Shown here one piece after another: positions 7,017 to 42,052 of a stretch of DNA of 64,000 nucleotides; position 1 is the stretch's first letter; each line of letters starts with the position of its first letter. The notes under the pieces were generated by a model. That model saw only the letters and a program-made list of their open reading frames with translations. It made no database searches and was not told the DNA's origin. The position numbers were made by a program, and so were the translations under genes. The DNA comes from Faecalibacterium sp. CAG:74 (lineage in GTDB: Bacteria; Spirochaetota; Spirochaetia; Sphaerochaetales; Sphaerochaetaceae), in the NCBI GenBank assembly GCA_963638045.1, contig CAVHPV010000002.1:8-64007 (forward strand). Reading direction: 5' to 3'.

Positions 7017-7038
7017 GCCGGCATGATGCAATGCCGGC
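7017..7038 (-). terminator. Hairpin downstream of the truncated lipoprotein copy
   Basis: GCCGGCAT-gatgca-ATGCCGGC, an 8-bp stem 8 nt after the stop at 7046. The U-run on the minus strand is weak. The repeat boundary (7029) falls in the loop. Confidence 0.4.
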
Positions 7039-8547
7039 ATCATTCTTACAGGGTCTCGAAGAATGACAAGGTACCATCCCCAAGGATTCTGAATCCACCA
7101 GCTGTCAACTGGATCGCTTCGTTGTCACTAATTTGCCAACCTGTGTTTTCAGCAAATGAATAGCTAACCCCTCTACTTGTGGTGTACCCATTATAATCCA
7201 GGTCCAGAATAACTCCCTTTTTCACAACAAAGGAGTCAGTTTCAACACTAGTTTTATTCACCCAGTATTTTATTTCAGCCACGACACTTCCAGTCTCGCT
7301 CTTTGTAATTCCTTCGACTGTGGTCGACGAGGTGTCCGTTTGTATACCAATAAGAGCTTTTTCAGCACTGAGGAGAACGGCTTTGTAGCTGGCAACAGCA
7401 GTTTCATCCAGTGTAGCCGAGCCGGAAGCAGAAGCAGCCTTGATTGCATCTGCGATACTTGTCCCAGGGGTAGCTTCGCTATTTACTGTCAGGAGGGTTT
7501 TTATTGCAGATCTTGCTCCCGAGCCATCAGCCTTCCCCATTTTCTTCAAGATTTCATCCGCAGCCTTCAGAGTATCAGCAACCTTCTGCATCACAGCTGC
7601 AGCGTTTGTGCCTGTCGTTGCTGTAGTAAATTTGTTCGTGCTTCCACCATACTTCCACGCAGTCTTAGCAGCCTCCAGAGCATCGTCTGCGGTAGTCATT
7701 GCGACCGGATCGCTTGACTTATTCACAGTCACTTCGCAATAGTTTTTGGCATAATATCCGCATTTTGTGCATGTAGCTTTCTGCTCGTCTGTTCTTCCGG
7801 TTGTGGTATCGTAGATATGAGCAACAGGATAGTATTCTAGTCCACACACATCACAGCATACATAGTGGTCTGTCCCGTCCATCAGGTTGTTACTCATGAA
7901 AGACATCAGTTTAAAATTAGAATCATTTCCAACAAATGTCGATCTGTCATTTTCAGCACTGCTCGTGCCATAAAGGTGATTGTGATTCTCGATGAAGACA
8001 ATTTTGCAGGTTTTGGATTCAGCAGCTGTATATGCATTACTGCTATTATCCGAACTCACAACCCAAGCTCCAGTTGAATCTTTTGAGAGATAAATTCCAC
8101 TGCTTAGCTTCAATGCACGTTCTTTTGTATCTTTGCAATCAAAGCGATCTACAAATTCTGCAGTCGCAACACTGCTAGCCTCTGTCGTTGTCCACCCTTT
8201 CCCGTCAGCACAAGAAGATTCAATCTTTTTCACGGTCAGACCATCCGCATTCTCTACAATATCTCCATAAGTAATATTGGTAATATTTCCGTTAGAATCC
8301 AATGTATAGCCGACTAAGGTTCCAACCATATATTTATAAGTTGGAGCAGCTGTTCCACTTGTTTCCACAGGCTTATTCAAATACCCAAGAGACTCAAGGC
8401 AAGATGCACAATATGCTTCGTAACTTACAGGTGTAAATTCTGTTGCAGCAACGGTTTTATCCTTTTCATAATGAGCATCATCTTCGCTTATCCCACCTGC
8501 AACATTTATTTTTCCGTCGGCAGTAAGATAATTTACATATGCACCAT
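7029..8547. repeat. 1,519-bp direct repeat, left copy (partner 10519-12037)
   Basis: Identical to 10519-12037 at offset 3490. Hand-compared lines match, and the translations of four ORFs on both strands are identical between the copies. Confidence 0.95.
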
Positions 8548-8575
8548 CGTTAAATATACACGGATGCTGCTGAAC
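7046..8575 (-). pseudogene. 5'-truncated duplicate of the 621-aa surface lipoprotein gene
   Basis: The C-terminal 444+ codons are identical to 10536-12401, but the signal peptide and lipobox are missing. The frame runs upstream out of the repeat and closes at TAG 8576-8578. No ATG with an SD; only an internal TTG at 8380. Confidence 0.8.
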
Positions 8576-8635
8576 CTATTATTTCTTCAAAGTCCTACAG
8601 CATCTGTATACTTCAAAAGTCAACCATTTAGCTGT

Positions 8636-10348
8636 TTAAGGATGAGGCCACACTGTGCAGATATACCCGACCATCTCATCACACCGCCTCAATATTGATG
8701 TCTCATTCCATGCATCAAAGCCACCAAGACTTTGGCTAATGCGGATAGGAGTATAGCGGTAGCCATAGTTGAAACCGTCCGGGGCATTACCTCTCCAGTC
8801 TCTCTTGAATCCGAAGCGATAATCTCCCATACGGGCATTCTCTCCTCTTGGAAGAATAGTCAGATTTCCCAATGTATGCTGGAATCTATCATGAATAACC
8901 TGTGCTTCTGCTCCCAGGTCAAGTTCCCAATTATAGTCATCAATGTTCTGAACATTCTCCTTTGGAAAAGCAGCCGTATGCATAGTTTCAGGAAGAATAT
9001 GCTCGATAGTTGGGTCTACTAAGGAGAATGCAGGATTAAGAGATTTCTCAATTCTCTCAAGGTAGTAGTATGCGCTCATTAAGCTATAGAAGTCACCATA
9101 ATGCAGATAGTTCAATATTTCATTATCATCAGGCATTCTTTGTTTGCCAGGAAGGTTATTGATGCACTCGATAAAGTCATTCAGGCTGTCAGAATGAGAT
9201 AGGAACATTATCATGGCAGTACCCAATGAATTCGTCGGAACACGGAGAATATCTCTCCTCACTATATAAGACTCGAGGTACCTCAGGATGGCAATTGTGT
9301 CATCAACTAAGACAGTGTGTTTGTCCCACTGATTCAATATCTTAAGAATCAACGGAATAAATATGTCTTTTCCAGTGTAGGAAATATACTTTAGGAGAGT
9401 TGCAATGTCTCTATTTCTAAATGAGTTATTAAGATATTTTGCATAGAGTTTAGCATACTGATGTATCTCAGCAAGAATACTCTCGATGCCTTCAACACTA
9501 CCGGAACTCATAATGAATGTCTTCTTGAAAACGCAGTAGTATTCTTTCTGATCAAGAAGAGTACAGGCTTTAAGTCTTGTAAAATAAAAGAGAAAATCAT
9601 CCATTTTATCAAGAATAAGATCCTCAACAGGTTTCCAATACTGAATGTAGAGCCGATTTTGGTCTCTACTTGTAAGTCCCATAAAAATCCAATTACGCAC
9701 CAGATCGACTTTATTTAAATCAACACCAGTGTCATTTACAGCTTCAAACAGAAGCTGAGGATTCTCATTTGCCTCCAAGGTCACAAGTGCAAGTTGTGCC
9801 TTACTTATACCATCAAAGATAATTGTCGGATTATATTTTTTATCGACCAGACTCTTAAGGAAGAAGTTATAGTTTTCGGACATCTTCCCGTCTCCAATTA
9901 CCCCATGCAGAAGGCTTATATATTCATTCCTGTCTGTACCTTCTTTCGGAAGTAACTTTGTAAACAAGCTTGTGTTTATTAATGCATCATTTACAAGGTA
10001 AATTTTCTTTATATTACCAAGAATTGCTGATGTAGTGTCAGGCACAGTCTGAACAGGATAATCACTCCAGTATCTCTCCAAAGCAAGCAGGAGAAGTGTA
10101 ATCGTTGTGGTTCTCTGCTGTCCATCTATTACATTGTAGACATTTACAACTCCTGCAGCCTGTTCCTCTTTCAAAATGATTGACCCGACATAATGATTAG
10201 CATTCCCGGGAGTCCCGGCCTTGATAATATCCTCCAATAACTTCTCGCAATTCTCTTTCCCCCAGGCATAATTCCTTTGGTAGATAGGAATCTGGTACTG
10301 CTTGATTCCTGACAAAAGCGAAAAGAAGTCGCTCGGTGTAATTCTCAT
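8636..10348 (-). CDS. GmrSD-like type IV restriction endonuclease candidate (DUF262 N-terminal + DUF1524 His-Me/HNH C-terminal domain)
   Basis: 570 aa. QIPIYQRNYAWGKENCEKLLEDI and VIDGQQRTTT (DUF262 / ParB-like DGQQR motif). C-terminal IEHILPE ... HTLGNLTILPRGENARMGD (DUF1524). Strong SD AAGGAGG upstream of the ATG at 10348. Confidence 0.8.
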   Translation of the reverse strand: MRITPSDFFSLLSGIKQYQIPIYQRNYAWGKENCEKLLEDIIKAGTPGNANHYVGSIILKEEQAAGVVNVYNVIDGQQRTTTITLLLLALERYWSDYPVQTVPDTTSAILGNIKKIYLVNDALINTSLFTKLLPKEGTDRNEYISLLHGVIGDGKMSENYNFFLKSLVDKKYNPTIIFDGISKAQLALVTLEANENPQLLFEAVNDTGVDLNKVDLVRNWIFMGLTSRDQNRLYIQYWKPVEDLILDKMDDFLFYFTRLKACTLLDQKEYYCVFKKTFIMSSGSVEGIESILAEIHQYAKLYAKYLNNSFRNRDIATLLKYISYTGKDIFIPLILKILNQWDKHTVLVDDTIAILRYLESYIVRRDILRVPTNSLGTAMIMFLSHSDSLNDFIECINNLPGKQRMPDDNEILNYLHYGDFYSLMSAYYYLERIEKSLNPAFSLVDPTIEHILPETMHTAAFPKENVQNIDDYNWELDLGAEAQVIHDRFQHTLGNLTILPRGENARMGDYRFGFKRDWRGNAPDGFNYGYRYTPIRISQSLGGFDAWNETSILRRCDEMVGYICTVWPHP

Positions 10349-10506
10349 AATATTTCTCCTCCTTCAAAGCTTCTTATCTAAAGCAACCAAAATAAAAAGT
10401 TCCCCCTAAACAAAAAGCTATAACCAGAAGGGGAACCGTCAGGTTATAGCAATAAAGTAAAAATGGAATATTAATTTTATTTCCATTAAATACAATGTTT
10501 AAATCA

Positions 10507-10527
10507 CCGGCATTCAAACAATGCCGG
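10507..10527 (-). terminator. Hairpin downstream of the intact lipoprotein gene
   Basis: CCGGCAT-tcaaaca-ATGCCGG, 9 nt after the stop at 10536. The right arm lies inside the repeat. The left arm lies outside it but is still complementary. Confidence 0.4.
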
Positions 10528-12037
10528 CATCATTCTTACAGGGTCTCGAAGAATGACAAGGTACCATCCCCAAGGATTCTGAATCCACCAGCTGTCAACT
10601 GGATCGCTTCGTTGTCACTAATTTGCCAACCTGTGTTTTCAGCAAATGAATAGCTAACCCCTCTACTTGTGGTGTACCCATTATAATCCAGGTCCAGAAT
10701 AACTCCCTTTTTCACAACAAAGGAGTCAGTTTCAACACTAGTTTTATTCACCCAGTATTTTATTTCAGCCACGACACTTCCAGTCTCGCTCTTTGTAATT
10801 CCTTCGACTGTGGTCGACGAGGTGTCCGTTTGTATACCAATAAGAGCTTTTTCAGCACTGAGGAGAACGGCTTTGTAGCTGGCAACAGCAGTTTCATCCA
10901 GTGTAGCCGAGCCGGAAGCAGAAGCAGCCTTGATTGCATCTGCGATACTTGTCCCAGGGGTAGCTTCGCTATTTACTGTCAGGAGGGTTTTTATTGCAGA
11001 TCTTGCTCCCGAGCCATCAGCCTTCCCCATTTTCTTCAAGATTTCATCCGCAGCCTTCAGAGTATCAGCAACCTTCTGCATCACAGCTGCAGCGTTTGTG
11101 CCTGTCGTTGCTGTAGTAAATTTGTTCGTGCTTCCACCATACTTCCACGCAGTCTTAGCAGCCTCCAGAGCATCGTCTGCGGTAGTCATTGCGACCGGAT
11201 CGCTTGACTTATTCACAGTCACTTCGCAATAGTTTTTGGCATAATATCCGCATTTTGTGCATGTAGCTTTCTGCTCGTCTGTTCTTCCGGTTGTGGTATC
11301 GTAGATATGAGCAACAGGATAGTATTCTAGTCCACACACATCACAGCATACATAGTGGTCTGTCCCGTCCATCAGGTTGTTACTCATGAAAGACATCAGT
11401 TTAAAATTAGAATCATTTCCAACAAATGTCGATCTGTCATTTTCAGCACTGCTCGTGCCATAAAGGTGATTGTGATTCTCGATGAAGACAATTTTGCAGG
11501 TTTTGGATTCAGCAGCTGTATATGCATTACTGCTATTATCCGAACTCACAACCCAAGCTCCAGTTGAATCTTTTGAGAGATAAATTCCACTGCTTAGCTT
11601 CAATGCACGTTCTTTTGTATCTTTGCAATCAAAGCGATCTACAAATTCTGCAGTCGCAACACTGCTAGCCTCTGTCGTTGTCCACCCTTTCCCGTCAGCA
11701 CAAGAAGATTCAATCTTTTTCACGGTCAGACCATCCGCATTCTCTACAATATCTCCATAAGTAATATTGGTAATATTTCCGTTAGAATCCAATGTATAGC
11801 CGACTAAGGTTCCAACCATATATTTATAAGTTGGAGCAGCTGTTCCACTTGTTTCCACAGGCTTATTCAAATACCCAAGAGACTCAAGGCAAGATGCACA
11901 ATATGCTTCGTAACTTACAGGTGTAAATTCTGTTGCAGCAACGGTTTTATCCTTTTCATAATGAGCATCATCTTCGCTTATCCCACCTGCAACATTTATT
12001 TTTCCGTCGGCAGTAAGATAATTTACATATGCACCAT
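10519..12037. repeat. 1,519-bp direct repeat, right copy (partner 7029-8547)
   Basis: See the left copy. This copy lies entirely within the intact lipoprotein gene and its terminator arm. Confidence 0.95.
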
Positions 12038-12401
12038 TTTTTAAAACTGCATGCGGGACTTTCATTCCAGCTTCAGCAGCTTCCTTTGGAGTAACGATCT
12101 CCTGGAATTCTGCACCACACACCTGACAACGATATGTATAGATACCGTCCTGAACACAATTCAAAGGCTGTTCTTCTTTTTTAACGGCATTTTTAGCATG
12201 ACTATGACCAAGAGCGGCAACAGTCTCTGTCTTAGTTTCTCCACATGTGGTACATGTGAATGTTATCTCACCAGTCGTTGTACATGATGGTGCCAAGGTC
12301 TGTTTTCCTTCATCCCACGTATGCTTGTGGTTTTCAGGTGAACATGCCACGGCAACAAACACCAAGACAACCAACATTACGATTGATAATGTTTTCTTCA
12401 T
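10536..12401 (-). CDS. Surface lipoprotein with N-terminal His/Cys (zinc-ribbon-like) modules
   Basis: 621 aa. Signal peptide MKKTLSIVMLVVLVFVAVAC with a lipobox Cys. The mature N-terminus carries HKHTW...CTTCGE and GHSH...CQVCGA modules. Confidence 0.8.
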   Translation of the reverse strand: MKKTLSIVMLVVLVFVAVACSPENHKHTWDEGKQTLAPSCTTTGEITFTCTTCGETKTETVAALGHSHAKNAVKKEEQPLNCVQDGIYTYRCQVCGAEFQEIVTPKEAAEAGMKVPHAVLKNGAYVNYLTADGKINVAGGISEDDAHYEKDKTVAATEFTPVSYEAYCASCLESLGYLNKPVETSGTAAPTYKYMVGTLVGYTLDSNGNITNITYGDIVENADGLTVKKIESSCADGKGWTTTEASSVATAEFVDRFDCKDTKERALKLSSGIYLSKDSTGAWVVSSDNSSNAYTAAESKTCKIVFIENHNHLYGTSSAENDRSTFVGNDSNFKLMSFMSNNLMDGTDHYVCCDVCGLEYYPVAHIYDTTTGRTDEQKATCTKCGYYAKNYCEVTVNKSSDPVAMTTADDALEAAKTAWKYGGSTNKFTTATTGTNAAAVMQKVADTLKAADEILKKMGKADGSGARSAIKTLLTVNSEATPGTSIADAIKAASASGSATLDETAVASYKAVLLSAEKALIGIQTDTSSTTVEGITKSETGSVVAEIKYWVNKTSVETDSFVVKKGVILDLDYNGYTTSRGVSYSFAENTGWQISDNEAIQLTAGGFRILGDGTLSFFETL

Positions 12402-12454
12402 AAATAATTTACCCCTTTGGGACAGAAGTCCCTCAATTTTTACTTTTCAAAGAG

Positions 12455-12484
12455 AGTATACCCCCCCCCGTATATTTTTTGCAA
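12455..12484 (-). promoter_or_regulatory. Candidate sigma-70 promoter of the lipoprotein gene with a G9 homopolymer in the spacer
   Basis: The minus strand reads TTGCAA (12484-12479), aaaatatacGGGGGGGGG (18-nt spacer; C9 on the + strand at 12461-12469), TATACT (12460-12455). It lies about 55 nt upstream of the ATG at 12401. Confidence 0.6.
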
Positions 12485-12549
12485 GTGTTTTATTGAACTG
12501 ATGAAGGAAAAATATAGAAGTTATATGAGTTTTCGGGGCTTCCGGGCAA

Positions 12550-12581
12550 TAAAAAATCCCATAGGAGAGGCCCTACGGGAT
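12550..12581 (-). terminator. Rho-independent terminator after the SIMPL lipoprotein gene
   Basis: The minus strand reads ATCCCGTAGG-gcctct-CCTATGGGAT followed by TTTTTT. It lies 26 nt downstream of the stop at 12607. Confidence 0.7.
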
Positions 12582-12606
12582 GTGTATCTTCTTATTTCGA
12601 GTTGAG

Positions 12607-13329
12607 TTATCTAAGTTCGAAGACTGCTGTGACTGTTGCTGATACGCTTAAGTCTCCTGCATAGTAAGTTGTAGAAGAATAGCTGTCTGCTGCGGCTGCC
12701 TCGGCAAACATCATCTTGGAATTGGAGTAGTCATAGGAAGAATAGGAGACGGATCCCTCGGCAAGGGAGACTACCTTCCCCACTGTCATATTCACTCCCT
12801 TGGCATAATCGGATGCTTTCTCCAGGGCACTTATTGCCGCTCCTTCACGTGCTTTCTTCACATCCTCTGTCGTATCGAGCTTCGAATATGATATCGAGGA
12901 AATCGAGATCCCGTCGAGAACACTGAGCCTGTCATAGACCTTTCCAGCCTTTTCCAACCCATTCTTTATTGTAATATTAAGGCTCTGTGTTGCTCTCTGC
13001 CCCGAGAGTGTCCTTGAGCCGTCCACCCATTCATAATAAGGATTAATATTCATATAGTTGGTGACTATCTCGTCATCTGTTATACCATACTCATCCTTGA
13101 GGATACTTATTGCCTCACTTATCATTTTACTTGATGCATTCCTTGCTTCTTCTGTTGTAGGCTCCAGGGATTCTGCCGTTATTGTGAATGAAGCTGCATC
13201 AGGAGTGACTGAAACTGAGCTTGTTGCTGTCACTGTTATATATGACTTTTCATTCTTCAAAGTTGAACAGCTTGTGAAAGCTAGAAGCAATACAAATACT
13301 AATAAGATACTGCATGTGAGTTTTTTCAT
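12607..13329 (-). CDS. SIMPL/DUF541-domain lipoprotein
   Basis: 240 aa. Lipobox LLAFTSC. ITVTATSSVSVTPD... start and overall beta-rich pattern typical of SIMPL (DUF541). ATGA overlap with the upstream Nudix gene. Confidence 0.6.
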   Translation of the reverse strand: MKKLTCSILLVFVLLLAFTSCSTLKNEKSYITVTATSSVSVTPDAASFTITAESLEPTTEEARNASSKMISEAISILKDEYGITDDEIVTNYMNINPYYEWVDGSRTLSGQRATQSLNITIKNGLEKAGKVYDRLSVLDGISISSISYSKLDTTEDVKKAREGAAISALEKASDYAKGVNMTVGKVVSLAEGSVSYSSYDYSNSKMMFAEAAAADSYSSTTYYAGDLSVSATVTAVFELR

Positions 13330-13907
13330 CTCTTGATTCTCCTTAAACCAGGCTCTTCCTCTGCTTTTCTCATGAAGGCAAAGAGAGCCGAAAGCATGAT
13401 TCCATTCGAATATTGGCCGGTGGCCATATCACGAATGACGTCCTCGACAGGAACGAAGAGGAGTTCTATCTCCTCGTTATCGTCCAGGTTCGGGGCTGAG
13501 ACCTTCCTGAGGTTTCTTGCCAGAAAGAAAGTCTGTCTGTTTGTCAAAAAAGCGGGATTGGGATTGAAAGACGCAAGAAGCTCGAAGTCCGCCTCATAAC
13601 CGGTCTCTTCCATCAATTCCCTTCTTGCACCCTCCAGTGCACTTTCCCCTTCCTCTATTAAACCCGCAGGAAACTCAATGGTTACACTTTCAGATCCGTG
13701 ACGGTATTGTCTCTCCATGAGAAACACCGGTACTCCATCCTCCCGTCTCATCCACGGGATAATTGATGCCCAGTCAGGAAGGGCAAGTGTTATGAACTCT
13801 CCCTTCTTTTCACCATGTGTACGTTCTGATACGTCTACGCTGAAGATGGGGGAAGTGAAGACTCTCCTCTTCTCTCCCACCTTCCACATGAGCTCCTCAT
13901 CCTTCAT
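13326..13907 (-). CDS. NUDIX hydrolase (ADP-ribose pyrophosphatase-like)
   Basis: Nudix box GLIEEGESALEGARRELMEETGY. The start is uncertain (GTG 13943, ATG 13907 or ATG 13889). The ATG at 13907 overlaps the Mrp stop by 11 nt. Confidence 0.75.
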   Translation of the reverse strand: MKDEELMWKVGEKRRVFTSPIFSVDVSERTHGEKKGEFITLALPDWASIIPWMRREDGVPVFLMERQYRHGSESVTIEFPAGLIEEGESALEGARRELMEETGYEADFELLASFNPNPAFLTNRQTFFLARNLRKVSAPNLDDNEEIELLFVPVEDVIRDMATGQYSNGIMLSALFAFMRKAEEEPGLRRIKR

Positions 13908-14820
13908 TTTTCTTACTCGGACAGTTTGATGTGCAATGCGCACATGCCTCAGGAGAGCAGGAGGAAGTACCGAGGTAGTTCATCTCACGTCCTGTCGTAC
14001 ATGCATCTCCCTTCTCGAGTTTCTCTGCTATCTTATATAAAGCTTCAGCACTTGGATGTGTTGTATCCTTAATCCAGTCATCTCCCCTGTCTTCACTTTC
14101 CATAAGATCGAGCTCCATCGGAATAGAACCGAGTAATGGTGTATTCATCTCGAGTGCCATGTTCCTTCCACCATTTCTGCCGAATACGGGAATCTCGGTG
14201 CCGCAATTGGGACACTTGAGTCCTGACATATTTTCTATTACTCCGATAATTGGAACACCGCACTTACGGGCAAATGTAACGGAGCGTCTGCTGTCGAGTA
14301 TTGCAACACTCTGAGGTGTTGTGACAATGATTGCACCGGTAAGGTCAAGTACAGACTGGACAACAGTGAGCTGTTCATCCCCTGTTCCAGGAGGAGTGTC
14401 TATGATGAGATAGTCCAGCGTACCCCACTCCGTATCACCTAAGAATTGTCTGATAACACCCATCTTCATTGCTCCCCTCCAGATGATTGCATCATCCGGA
14501 TCGGGAAGAGCAAAGGCAAGCGACATGACTTCCATCCCGTCGTCAGTGACGACAGGAAGCATCGTCTTCCCATCAGGGGACATGAGCTCGGCATCCTTCA
14601 CCCCAAGCATCTTGGCCACATTGGGGCCGTGTATATCACAATCGAGGATACCGACGGAGCATCCCATCTTGGAGAGAGCGCGGGCAAGGTTTACTGTGAC
14701 AGTTGTCTTACCGACTCCACCTTTACCCGACATCACAATTATCTTACGCTTTATAAGGCACATTCTTTCATCTATACGTTCAGATTGAAGATCGTATTCA
14801 CTTTTCTCTGTGTTTTCCAT
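13897..14820 (-). CDS. Mrp/ApbC/NBP35-family Fe-S cluster carrier ATPase
   Basis: Deviant Walker A VMSGKGGVGKTTV, CPNCG motif, Cys-rich C-terminal tail. SD AAGGAG 6 nt upstream of the ATG. Confidence 0.85.
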   Translation of the reverse strand: MENTEKSEYDLQSERIDERMCLIKRKIIVMSGKGGVGKTTVTVNLARALSKMGCSVGILDCDIHGPNVAKMLGVKDAELMSPDGKTMLPVVTDDGMEVMSLAFALPDPDDAIIWRGAMKMGVIRQFLGDTEWGTLDYLIIDTPPGTGDEQLTVVQSVLDLTGAIIVTTPQSVAILDSRRSVTFARKCGVPIIGVIENMSGLKCPNCGTEIPVFGRNGGRNMALEMNTPLLGSIPMELDLMESEDRGDDWIKDTTHPSAEALYKIAEKLEKGDACTTGREMNYLGTSSCSPEACAHCTSNCPSKKNEG

Positions 14821-14905
14821 TTTTAATCTCCTTAGTGCATATTACCCCAAACTCCTCACATGATTCCAGAGAGCGGGGATGATGGTTCACTCCCTTACCT
14901 GTCCT

Positions 14906-15793
14906 TCAACCGAGGGATGCTACAAAACCGTCATACATCATTTTAGTCATTTCTGCGGAGAAACCGGAATTCTCCAGGAACTTCTTGTACTTCTCAAGCA
15001 TTCCTCTTCTCTCTTCAGCTTTACCCTCGGCTTTACCCTCAGCTTTACCCTCAGCTTCTCTAATATCACCCTCTCTCTCAACCATCGCCTCGATGATTCT
15101 TTCCTGTCTCTCTATGCTGCTCATTATACCCTCAACCTCCCGTCTATGTTCTGAAAGATATTCCCTCATCGCTACTGTATCCTCACACTCAAGACAATAC
15201 TCTATCGTTCTCTCCACCGCCTCTGCAGTGCGTCCATACAGGGAACGGAACTCATCATACTTTTCACAGAAGATGCAATACGCCCTGAGTATACCCGTTG
15301 TATTTTCCTCTGTTAATATTTTAACCCTTATTTTCAGCGTCTGTCCCGAAAAACCGCAAAGCTCATCCTCGTAGTAATCAGGAACAGGTTTCTTTCCCGT
15401 ATACACCACAGCAAAATACAGGTCCGGCATACCTGTGGCATTCCTCTCATCATATTGCTCAAGCTCAAAGCGGGGATACACAGTGTAAATCGTCTCACAG
15501 AAATAGCTGTTGAGCCTGTATGTTATGTTCGGGCAGACTGTGGACTGTGCCTCAATCATATAGAGCTCCTTACCCTTTACAGTGAAACCCAGGTCATTGT
15601 GTATTCCGTATGCCAGAATATTGCCGAGAGTGACTATCTTCATGTCCTCTTCCCTGACAGTCGTATCATCTCCACCGAGACAGAGATAAAGCTCTCTGAC
15701 ATATCGCGGAATGGAGAAGAGGTGAGTGAAGACAGAATCTTTCAGATTGTATCTCACACGTCTCTTTCTCTTCTTCTGTGATTTTTCCTCCAT
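14906..15793 (-). CDS. Rpn-family recombination-promoting nuclease / PD-(D/E)XK putative transposase
   Basis: HNDLGFTVKGKELYMIEAQS (D...E-x-Q core of the PD-(D/E)XK Rpn/YhgA-like family). Start placed at MEEKSQKKRKRR. The C-terminal region contains an (EGKA)x3 repeat. Confidence 0.65.
   Translation of the reverse strand: MEEKSQKKRKRRVRYNLKDSVFTHLFSIPRYVRELYLCLGGDDTTVREEDMKIVTLGNILAYGIHNDLGFTVKGKELYMIEAQSTVCPNITYRLNSYFCETIYTVYPRFELEQYDERNATGMPDLYFAVVYTGKKPVPDYYEDELCGFSGQTLKIRVKILTEENTTGILRAYCIFCEKYDEFRSLYGRTAEAVERTIEYCLECEDTVAMREYLSEHRREVEGIMSSIERQERIIEAMVEREGDIREAEGKAEGKAEGKAEERRGMLEKYKKFLENSGFSAEMTKMMYDGFVASLG
15018..15053. repeat. 12-bp tandem repeat x3 inside the Rpn-family gene
   Basis: GCTTTACCCTC(G/A) repeated three times in frame, encoding EGKAEGKAEGKA. 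Confidence 0.9.
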
Positions 15794-16127
15794 GAAAAAC
15801 CTCCTACATATCTTTAAGACAGGTTTTTTCCGGAAAATGTCATCATTTTTCTTCAACTTTTGCGAATATGGTGAACATAGCCGCTTTTTTGAGGCCGGAT
15901 CGGCTGAGAAGGACAGATGTCTCTCCTCTTTTCATCCAGAGAAAGAAGCCAGAAAGCATGGCTCATTTCAGCCAGGAGATAATAAAACTGTGAGAAATAA
16001 CAAGTTATTTAACATTTTCTGCTGTATATGTTAAATAGTCTTTACAATAGTGACGGATACTTGAATTCAAATCTAAATCTTTAGTAAAATTAAATAAAAT
16101 CTAATTTCCAGATTAGGAGACAAATAT

Positions 16128-40770: not shown

Positions 40771-40860
40771 CTATCCATAGAGAGTACGTGAGGGACAAGC
40801 CCGGTGACCGTACAGCAACCTGTAGAAAAATAAGGTGCTAAAGCTTGAACGATGGGTTGT
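40771..40860 (+). promoter_or_regulatory. SAM-I-clan (S-box) riboswitch aptamer upstream of metK
   Basis: ATCCAT-AGAGAG-TACGTGAGGGACAAGCCCGGTGACCGTACAGCAACC-TGTAG...AAGGTGCTAA...GATGGGT. The P1, P2 (GTACG/CGTAC) and P3 (ACCT/AGGT) pairings and the conserved GAGGGA, GCCC, GCAACC and GGTGCTAA blocks are present. Confidence 0.75.
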
Positions 40861-40918
40861 TTTTTATTGCCCGTCCGATGGGTGGCAGCTTCTTCTCTAT
40901 GGTAAAGGAGAAGCAGAA

Positions 40919-42052
40919 ATGAAAAGTTATTTCACATCAGAATCAGTAACCCCCGGTCATCCCGACAAGGTTGCAGACCAGATTTCAGATAGTATCCTTG
41001 ATGCTATATTGAAAGAAGACCCGTACTCACGCTGTGCAGCAGAGACGACTGTCGAGGAAGGACTATGCAGAGTATTCGGGGAAGTCACAACAAATGCTCA
41101 AGTTGACTATGAAAGTGTCATACAAGCAAAGATAAGGGAAATAGGATACACGGACACTTCTCTCGGTTTTTCTGACAAAAGTCGCATTGAAGTTGCCCTT
41201 CACAGGCAGTCAGCAGACATTGCCCTCGGAGTTGACCGGGATGGGGCCGGCGACCAGGGAATGATGTTCGGCTATGCCACATCTGAGACGGACTCTTTTA
41301 TGCCGCTTGCACTTAACGAGTCCAGAAAACTGGCGATAGCACTCACAGAATACCGTAAGAGCGGAAAAGGAAGCTATCTCCGTCCTGACGGAAAGAGCCA
41401 AGTGACAATATGCTATGAAGACGGGAAGGCAAAGTACATAGATACCGTTGTCCTCTCAAGCCAGCACAGTGAAGATATCACAACAGAAGAGCTCAGAAAA
41501 GATTTGAAGGAAAATGTCATCCTTCCATCTCTTTCGGAAAAACTGGTAAATGAAAATACAAAGTTTTATATCAACCCGACGGGACGGTTCGTCCTGGGAG
41601 GCCCCGCAGCAGATACCGGTCTTACAGGAAGAAAAATCATAGCAGATACATATGGAGGCTACGCTCACCATGGCGGTGGTGCATTCAGCGGCAAGGACGG
41701 CACCAAGGTTGACCGCTCCGCTTCCTACAAGGCACGGCAGATAGCCAAGACTCTCGTCTCTTCAGGAATATTCAATGAAGCGGAAATACAGCTCTCATAT
41801 GCTATCGGGATTGCAAACCCGGTTTCAATCCATGTAGTAACAAACAGGGATGATATAGACGAAGAGAGACTTGTTGCATTTATAAGAGACAACTTTGCCC
41901 TGACACCGAAAGGGATTATAGAGAGCCTCTCCCTCCGCTCCCCGATTTTCAGTGAGACCGCCCGTTTCGGCCATTTCGGCTTCCCATCCTTCCCCTGGGA
42001 GCAGGTTGATCCAGAGACAGTGGAGAAATTAAGAATAAAATTCGGAAAATAA
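40919..42052 (+). CDS. metK: S-adenosylmethionine synthetase
   Basis: GHPDKVADQISD, GAGDQGMMFGYA, GGGAFSGKD. Start at MKSYFTSE, preceded by AAAGGAGAAG (the track ORF begins 84 nt too early). Confidence 0.95.
   Translation: MKSYFTSESVTPGHPDKVADQISDSILDAILKEDPYSRCAAETTVEEGLCRVFGEVTTNAQVDYESVIQAKIREIGYTDTSLGFSDKSRIEVALHRQSADIALGVDRDGAGDQGMMFGYATSETDSFMPLALNESRKLAIALTEYRKSGKGSYLRPDGKSQVTICYEDGKAKYIDTVVLSSQHSEDITTEELRKDLKENVILPSLSEKLVNENTKFYINPTGRFVLGGPAADTGLTGRKIIADTYGGYAHHGGGAFSGKDGTKVDRSASYKARQIAKTLVSSGIFNEAEIQLSYAIGIANPVSIHVVTNRDDIDEERLVAFIRDNFALTPKGIIESLSLRSPIFSETARFGHFGFPSFPWEQVDPETVEKLRIKFGK

Follow-up and report, generated by a model that had tools for sequence, protein, structure and literature searches.

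A lipoprotein gene of a spirochete of the family Sphaerochaetaceae is preceded by a run of nine G residues. The question raised by this locus is whether the run acts as a switch that changes the expression of the gene. The sequence-only reading had placed it in the spacer between the -35 and -10 hexamers of a surface lipoprotein promoter, and had proposed it as a candidate for slipped-strand phase variation. We analysed the site in the window (the whole stretch of 64,000 bases) and compared it with homologous loci in public assemblies, which are denoted here by L and a number. We consider that G9 is probably a hypermutable spacer repeat that serves as a slippage-driven promoter switch of a hypervariable lipoprotein gene.

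Predicted promoter and leader of the lipoprotein gene

The promoter site sits between the strong terminator-like hairpin of the upstream gene (12581-12556) and the Shine-Dalgarno sequence and ATG of the lipoprotein gene. This terminator sets the lipoprotein gene apart from the upstream one as a separate transcription unit, and a promoter of the lipoprotein gene itself is therefore expected in the approximately 150 nt that hold the site. The features of the region are as follows.

10536..12401, minus strand: 621-aa lipoprotein gene, with a signal peptide and lipobox (MKKTLSIVMLVVLVFVAVAC), a Cys-rich module and a family-specific remainder
12412..12418, minus strand: Shine-Dalgarno-like AAAGGGG, 10 nt 5' of the ATG (from sequence)
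12419..12432, minus strand: small leader hairpin GGGAC-ttct-GTCCC, directly 5' of the Shine-Dalgarno-like sequence (from the MFE structure)
12447..12448, minus strand: predicted transcription start (G/A, 7-8 nt past the -10), from sigma-70 promoter geometry and sequence
12455..12460, minus strand: predicted -10 hexamer TATACT (5/6 to TATAAT)
12461..12469, minus strand: G9 homopolymer (C9 on the plus strand), the length-variable element
12470..12478, minus strand: non-repetitive spacer portion AAAATATAC; the L022 form is AAAAGATAC plus an extra T
12479..12484, minus strand: predicted -35 hexamer TTGCAA (4/6 to TTGACA, TTG retained)
12485..12527, minus strand: A/T-rich conserved block 5' of the -35, ATATAACTTyTATATTTTTC...CAATAAAAyAC (alignment of 12 loci from two species)
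12556..12581, minus strand: intrinsic terminator hairpin (11 pairs and a T run) of the upstream SIMPL/DUF541 lipoprotein gene
12607-13329, minus strand: SIMPL/DUF541 lipoprotein gene, the upstream neighbour on the same strand

The coordinates given earlier for TTGCAA, the spacer, G9, TATACT and the ATG at 12401 were all correct on the minus-strand read. The spacer of the window is AAAATATAC+GGGGGGGGG, with a length of 18 nt (12478-12461, minus-strand read), and G9 fills 9 of these 18 positions between the predicted hexamers. TATACT lies 53 nt from the lipoprotein ATG, and the G tract ends 59 nt before it. The CTP synthase encoded in the window, whose top matches come from metagenomes, is 83% identical to a Candidatus Ornithospirochaeta protein and 72% identical to its Sphaerochaeta pleomorpha counterpart, which places the window in an uncultured member of the Sphaerochaetaceae. 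The sigma-70 hexamer model is reasonable for Spirochaetota. The A/T-rich block 5' of the -35 may be an UP-like element.

Apart from the C9/G9 run, no run of G or C in the window exceeds 6 nt. The other long G/C runs comprise four of 6 nt and none of 7 or 8 nt, so the description of the run as the longest G/C homopolymer in the window holds. The first-order Markov expectation for runs of at least 9 nt is approximately 0.07 for G and 0.18 for C (approximately 0.25 in total), which means that such a run is uncommon yet possible by chance. The hexamers had been called near-consensus, which overstates the match of TTGCAA (4/6) and TATACT (5/6), with a pair score of 9/12. Equally good hexamer pairs numbered 14 between 10000 and 14000, against 7.9 +/- 2.9 in shuffles; the hexamer match by itself is therefore not significant. 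Pair scoring and reading of the sequence found no better promoter-like pair between the terminator and the ATG. The site stands above chance because of its position and its conservation, above all in the comparison across genomes.

The stem of the leader hairpin is kept in L015 with a compensatory change (GGGAT..ATCCC), where it also precedes AAAGGGG, and the hairpin is present in L022 too. The AAAGGGG sequence is conserved in L010, L015 and L022. The fold energy of the leader is ordinary (z = -0.29, MFE structure), and an Rfam search of 12350-12650 gave nothing better than E = 2. A leader riboswitch or attenuator was rejected on the basis of the missing Rfam family and the fold score.

Several other candidates were rejected. 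An intragenic frameshift switch does not agree with the end of the tract upstream of the ATG and with a start that is fixed by the conserved signal peptide. The plus-strand ORFs that contain C9 (12247-12501 and 12417-12605) are mechanical; they overlap the terminator and the promoter and are broken by indels in L015. Sigma-54 and ECF-type promoters do not fit, as TTGCA is not preceded by a GG at -24 and a GGAAC/CGT motif is missing. The promoter, its leader and the first 29 codons lie between the arms of a perfect 12-nt inverted repeat (TTTTCCTTCATC / GATGAAGGAAAA, 12303-12314 / 12500-12511); such a repeat occurs in only 0.4% of shuffles. An inverton was rejected as the general mechanism, since L022 and L015 carry the promoter but lack this repeat. 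A scan of seven neighbouring genes (7046-15856) found no recombinase. L017, L018 and L021 leave the promoter-bearing contigs at the position that corresponds to the upstream repeat arm (after TATATTTTTC) and run into a convergent gene.

Tract length and conservation among homologous loci

The homologous loci were pulled from public assemblies through the conserved SIMPL neighbour and the members of its 90% cluster. The SIMPL neighbour was used as bait because the lipoprotein has no exact record: exact-protein look-ups of the 621-aa lipoprotein, the truncated copy and protein P0003 gave no match on record. Two DNA-pattern scans of the JGI metagenome collection gave no match, and the tally is made without JGI data. 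The contigs of L005-L009, which have a Sphaerochaetaceae-type neighbourhood, bear titles such as Muribaculaceae, Ruminococcus intestinalis and Acutalibacteraceae. The MAG set may therefore contain contigs that were mis-binned or given the wrong taxonomic label.

Tract length was compared across strains, as the sequence-only reading had proposed. The four same-species assemblies, which are short-read consensus assemblies in which long G runs are error-prone, gave G9 in the window, G10 in L004 (Logan SRR13434599), G11 in L010 (MAG GCA_963609625.1) and G11 in L015 (Logan SRR19415659). The L004 contig stops 3 nt past the tract, and L010 has both hexamers, the leader and the ATG intact. L016, which has an Illumina adapter before the tract, and L024, which ends in the terminator, were uninformative for tract length.

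As a noise control, approximately 3.9 kb of the same-species contigs was aligned to the window. L004 showed 0 substitutions over 3,855 nt and a sole difference of +1 G in the tract; the window and L004 may share one sample, and the difference would then be within-sample or an assembler choice and not one between two strains. L010 showed 35 substitutions and one indel, which is the +2 G in the tract. L015 showed 97 substitutions, and the tract was the only indel upstream of the -10. Six A6/T6 runs in the aligned stretch were invariant in length. Since only the tract changes length while these runs stay fixed, no other site in the region comes close to its length lability. A slippage-prone repeat would be expected to show such lability, whereas generic assembly error accounts for it less easily. 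With the tract as the only indel in approximately 3.9 kb in two comparisons, the proposal of a slipped-strand phase-variation candidate was supported.

In the sister species, the SIMPL neighbour is 87% identical. Here L012 has G9 with TATACT, and L022 has TTGCAA-AAAAGATACT-G9-TATACT, in which T+G9 gives a spacer of 19 nt. The L022 tract looks like a G10 with its first G turned into T. The contigs of L005, L013 and L014 end inside the run, with at least 9, at least 6 and at least 8 G, respectively. In L017, L018 and L021, also of the sister species, the promoter and the gene are both absent. The third species, L007 (SIMPL 71%), has TTGACA-CCATACC-G5 at the equivalent place, followed by a diverged insertion sequence (IS) copy. 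No tract was found in the distant relatives L006, L008 and L009.

We considered whether the length differences are a sequencing or assembly artefact at a long homopolymer, with a true tract of fixed length. Illumina indel error climbs at runs of at least 9, several contigs terminate in the run, and the window and L004 are zero SNPs apart and might be the same data. However, three lengths occur in complete two-sided contexts, from different assemblers and projects and in strains 35-97 substitutions apart, and the 2-nt gap between G9 and G11 exceeds typical consensus error. The 19-nt spacer of L022 is marked by a substitution and does not depend on homopolymer calling. An artefact is therefore an improbable explanation. 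Four contigs (L004, L005, L013 and L014) stop in the run or no more than 3 nt past it. Contig ends at the run are expected if the site is heterogeneous in the reads, and the tract would explain the assembly breaks at this site. Strain mixtures (IS present or absent, or divergent downstream alleles) could be another source of the breaks.

The alignment of 12 loci showed that the block CAATAAAAyAC-TTGCAA-AAAAkATACk-G(n)-TATACT-C is conserved in both species. TTGCAA is invariant in every locus that reaches the -35 in both species, and TATACT is invariant in the window, L010, L015, L012 and L022. The hexamers and the tract are retained in the sister species despite diverged adjacent intergenic sequence, and the terminator stem is kept there through compensatory changes. 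In L015, the leader and the gene are a different allele, which departs from the window 1 nt past the -10. The promoter and the tract thus appear to behave as a conserved module before exchangeable downstream sequence. Retention of the tract as a long homopolymer suggests selection, since without it such a run should decay.

The spacers of the six complete tracts measure 18-20 nt, and the optimal 17 nt was found in none. The expected range had been put at 17-19 nt: the lengths of 18 and 19 nt were both seen, while 17 nt was absent and 20 nt was found in addition. The lack of the optimal spacer agrees with a tract that is a real mutational hot spot and is neutral for regulation, with a promoter that lies elsewhere or tolerates spacers of 18-20 nt. 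The hexamer match, no better than many chance matches, fits this explanation too. However, a neutral run of G9-G11 should vanish fast, yet it is kept together with the hexamers in two species, and a G run is found in a third. No better pair is available between the terminator and the ATG, and the conserved block in L015 stops right after the -10. We regard a neutral hot spot as unlikely.

Another possibility is that transcription from an upstream promoter starts at or in the G run, and that the run acts in the RNA. This could take place by reiterative transcription as at B. subtilis pyrG, or by pairing of a G-rich 5' end with the downstream CUCUCUUU. The pyrimidine-rich CTCTCTTT after a TATA downstream of the run and the conserved block 5' of the -35 would suit such a start. 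The candidate sigma-70 pairs for it, however, match 2-3 of 6 positions and lack the key -7 T. The leader has an ordinary fold and no Rfam match, and TATACT is invariant whereas CTCTCTTT is replaced in L015. A role of the run in the RNA is extremely improbable.

The IS1182-family element and the variable lipoprotein locus

An IS1182-family element with a 601-aa transposase was found inside the poly-G run in L011, L019 and L023 of the sister species, and a diverged copy occupies the equivalent G run of L007. The element lies at 3777-5932 in L011, 1098-3253 in L019, from 3733 onward in L023 and from 3946 onward in L007, and its ends are AGACTGTCCTAAAAT / ATTTTAGGACGGTCT. G runs flank the element on both sides and on the same strand: G6|IS|G9 in L011, and G5|IS|G6 or more in L019. 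The flanking Gs look like a target duplication, which suggests that the element prefers poly-G. The right flank in L011, G9-TATCCT, runs into an unrelated GTPase-like gene, and this contig may be rearranged or chimeric. The window carries no copy of the IS1182-family ends. The idea that the run is a scar of the IS was rejected, as the window is free of IS ends and the IS-free loci have no IS remnant.

These insertions allow the reading that the G run is mainly an IS landing site or a boundary of cassette exchange, and that its position in the promoter is incidental. The IS copies inside the run of the sister species and of L007, the G residues at both of their ends on the same strand, and the break in allele similarity near the promoter are all in line with it. 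On the other hand, the tract is intact in the IS-free genomes of both species and in the IS-free window. A preference for G runs explains where the IS lands and not why the tract is retained, and the allele boundary in L015 falls after the -10, outside the run. A mere landing site or exchange boundary is very improbable as the explanation of the tract.

At the start of the lipoprotein product, MKKTLSIVMLVVLVFVAVAC is a lipoprotein signal peptide that includes a Cys lipobox. The signal peptide MKKTLSIV..V.LV..AVACSPE is common to all full-length relatives, although these are less than 50% identical to one another. The mature part of the window protein is approximately 33-36% identical to P0003, P0004 and the L022 allele. 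The SIMPL neighbour, in contrast to these hypervariable alleles beside it, is 87-100% identical. L003 matches the window exactly over its first 49 nt, a stretch that begins 10 nt 5' of the ATG and reaches into the codons of the signal peptide, but differs beyond it; the L010 contig ends at the same boundary. An invariant expression and export module, a hypervariable mature part and a conserved neighbour together suggest diversifying selection on a putatively exposed protein. The lipoprotein gene looks like a contingency gene. Its surface localisation, which the sequence-only reading had taken for granted, is putative, based on the lipoprotein signal peptide and the hypervariability.

Outside the N-terminal module, a word-index search gave no more than four relatives, and an exhaustive HMMER search found approximately 8 clusters that match the lipoprotein over its full length. 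The same HMMER search gave thousands of matches to residues ~26-105, a Cys-rich repeat. This module has paired CxxC motifs with a period of approximately 40 residues; giant proteins in the representative library (1,000-7,500 aa) carry it in up to approximately 40 copies. The repeat may be undescribed as a family, as its sole Pfam match, to a zinc ribbon, is below threshold. The AlphaFold model of the lipoprotein, built on a 4-sequence alignment, was poor, with a mean pLDDT of 48.7.

The lipoprotein gene is followed in the window by a restriction gene and a partial second copy.

7029..8547, minus strand: 5'-truncated, promoterless second lipoprotein copy (residues ~122-621 and 17 nt past the stop)
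8636..10348, minus strand: GmrSD-type restriction endonuclease gene

The segment 7029-8547 is a direct repeat of 10519-12037, with a length of 1,519 nt and 100% identity without a mismatch. The ORF of the duplicate is the 444-aa ORF at 7046-8380. The GmrSD gene lies on a unique segment of 1,971 nt (8548-10518) between the two copies, with a GC content of 38.7% compared with 45.5% in the window. The sequence-only reading had the lipoprotein gene duplicated around the restriction gene. This is right for the 3' three quarters of the gene, which flank GmrSD as the 1,519-nt repeat, and not for the remainder. The implied paralogy between the lipoprotein and the 570-aa ORF fails, as that ORF is the GmrSD gene itself. 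The identity of the repeat stops inside the loop of the terminator hairpin after each lipoprotein copy. This layout of repeat, unique segment and repeat is the expected product of a tandem duplication, or of a 3.49-kb circle integrated by a single (Campbell-type) crossover. In the relative L001, the end of a full copy is followed approximately 300 nt later by a 5'-truncated copy, without GmrSD.

Two further features were annotated in the window. A 12-nt tandem repeat of 3.6 copies at 15015-15057, in the minus-strand ORF 14906-15856, gives an unannotated protein of 316 aa an (AEGK)n stretch close to its C terminus; L024 has one unit fewer, an in-frame copy-number polymorphism. A SAM riboswitch (RF00162, 55.1 bits) at 40772-40858 on the plus strand lies upstream of ORF 40835-42052 and overlaps its start.

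The predicted spacer switch and its relation to known systems

In the spacer switch that we propose, slipped-strand mispairing at replication would add or remove G residues in the tract. The distance between the -35 and the -10 would then shift in 1-nt steps, with 17 nt for G8, 18 nt for G9, 19 nt for G10 and 20 nt for G11. Each step would twist the -35 by approximately 34 degrees of the helix relative to the -10. The altered distance would therefore alter the contact of RNA polymerase with both hexamers. Sigma-70 promoters work best at 17 nt, and their activity falls progressively at 18, 19 and 20 nt. G8 is thus predicted to be fully ON, the G9 of the window intermediate, and G10-G11 low or OFF. 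The outcome would be graded or ON/OFF expression of the lipoprotein in a clonal population, heritable yet reversible. We infer that the predicted hexamers are the promoter and that tract length changes transcription. We likewise infer frequent, reversible switching and a protein exposed at the surface to selection by immunity or phages. The missing 17-nt state is the main internal weakness of the spacer switch. Its absence from six tracts implies either that low or off states dominate the sampled populations, as one tract length dominates those of T. pallidum tprL (PMC7864442), or that spacing is less strictly constrained at this promoter.

Repeat-driven promoter switches are textbook in Neisseria, Haemophilus, Mycoplasma and T. 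pallidum. The poly-G tract of T. pallidum tp0126 was reportedly studied by Giacani et al. in 2015, and the promoter repeats of vlp and Vmm are said to have been described by Citti and Wise in 1995 and by Persson in 2002. Gene families of the vlp/Vmm type have a conserved 5' end and signal peptide with variable mature parts, a combination that the present gene recalls. To our knowledge, repeat-driven switches are hardly documented in commensal gut bacteria that are uncultured; the literature on these is mostly about invertible promoters. In a literature search, repeat-mediated phase variation was not reported for any Sphaerochaetaceae, and the sole overlap was an inverton survey that mentions Sphaerochaeta.

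The tp0126 gene of T. pallidum (an OmpW homologue) has a poly-G between the -35 and the -10, with the best transcription at 17-nt spacing, and its tract length varies among and within isolates (PMC7864442). The site described here is similar in its phylum (Spirochaetota), in a poly-G of similar length between predicted sigma-70-type hexamers, and in a predicted envelope protein with a cleavable signal peptide. The analogy with Treponema made in the sequence-only reading is apt phylogenetically, as the host is a spirochete. Unlike the pathogen, the present host is uncultured and probably commensal, and the gene is an unrelated hypervariable lipoprotein gene. The tp0126 switch is backed by transcription start, reporter and fragment-length data, whereas the promoter here is predicted from sequence, and its observed spacers are 18-20 nt only. 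In T. pallidum tprE/G/J, the poly-G lies just upstream of the transcription start, with 8 G or fewer permissive and 7-11 G in vivo (PMC7864442). The poly-G of tprL overlaps the -10, and its populations are dominated by one tract length (PMC7864442). These are also spirochaetal poly-G tracts 5' of candidate outer-membrane protein genes, but they do not lie cleanly between the -35 and the -10, so simple spacer tuning does not apply to them.

The porA gene of N. meningitidis has a G tract of approximately 9-11 in the -35/-10 spacer, with graded expression of a surface protein through departure from 17 nt (PMC7864442); opc has a poly-C at the -35. In contrast to the present site, porA belongs to another phylum and encodes a porin, its tract makes up most of the spacer, and its observed states include the optimum. 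In M. hyorhinis vlp, a poly-A promoter tract governs ON/OFF transcription of variable surface lipoproteins, and in M. mycoides Vmm, TA repeats in the promoter spacer form an ON/OFF lipoprotein switch (PMC10502178). The repeat here is poly-G and not poly-A or TA. The vlp genes form a multigene cluster with one switch per gene, whereas here there is one full gene and a promoterless partial copy. The site shares both defining features of the porA/tp0126/vlp type that sequence can test, namely a position in the spacer of the predicted hexamers and length polymorphism.

The locus may vary in more elaborate ways, as the IS insertion, the promoterless partial copies and the GmrSD insertion hint. We speculate, with considerable doubt, that commensal Sphaerochaetaceae use it as a site dedicated to expressing a hypervariable lipoprotein, and that it combines the poly-G switch, gene-body replacement and a poly-G-homing IS1182-family element. 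In the second of these layers, the gene body would be swapped behind an invariant module of promoter, leader and signal peptide, possibly fed by adjacent promoterless 5'-truncated copies, which are seen in two lineages. In the third, the IS1182-family element would insert preferentially into poly-G, independently in two species and with duplication of the G runs. If true, this would be an insertion sequence that homes to phase-variation tracts.

If the spacer switch is confirmed, it would extend the poly-G strategy of T. pallidum to free-living or commensal spirochetes. Its presence in a commensal branch would suggest that the strategy predates pathogenesis in the phylum. Confirmation would also single out this lipoprotein family as one on which host antibodies or phages probably exert selection, and tract length would become a simple metagenomic read-out of the expression state in natural populations.
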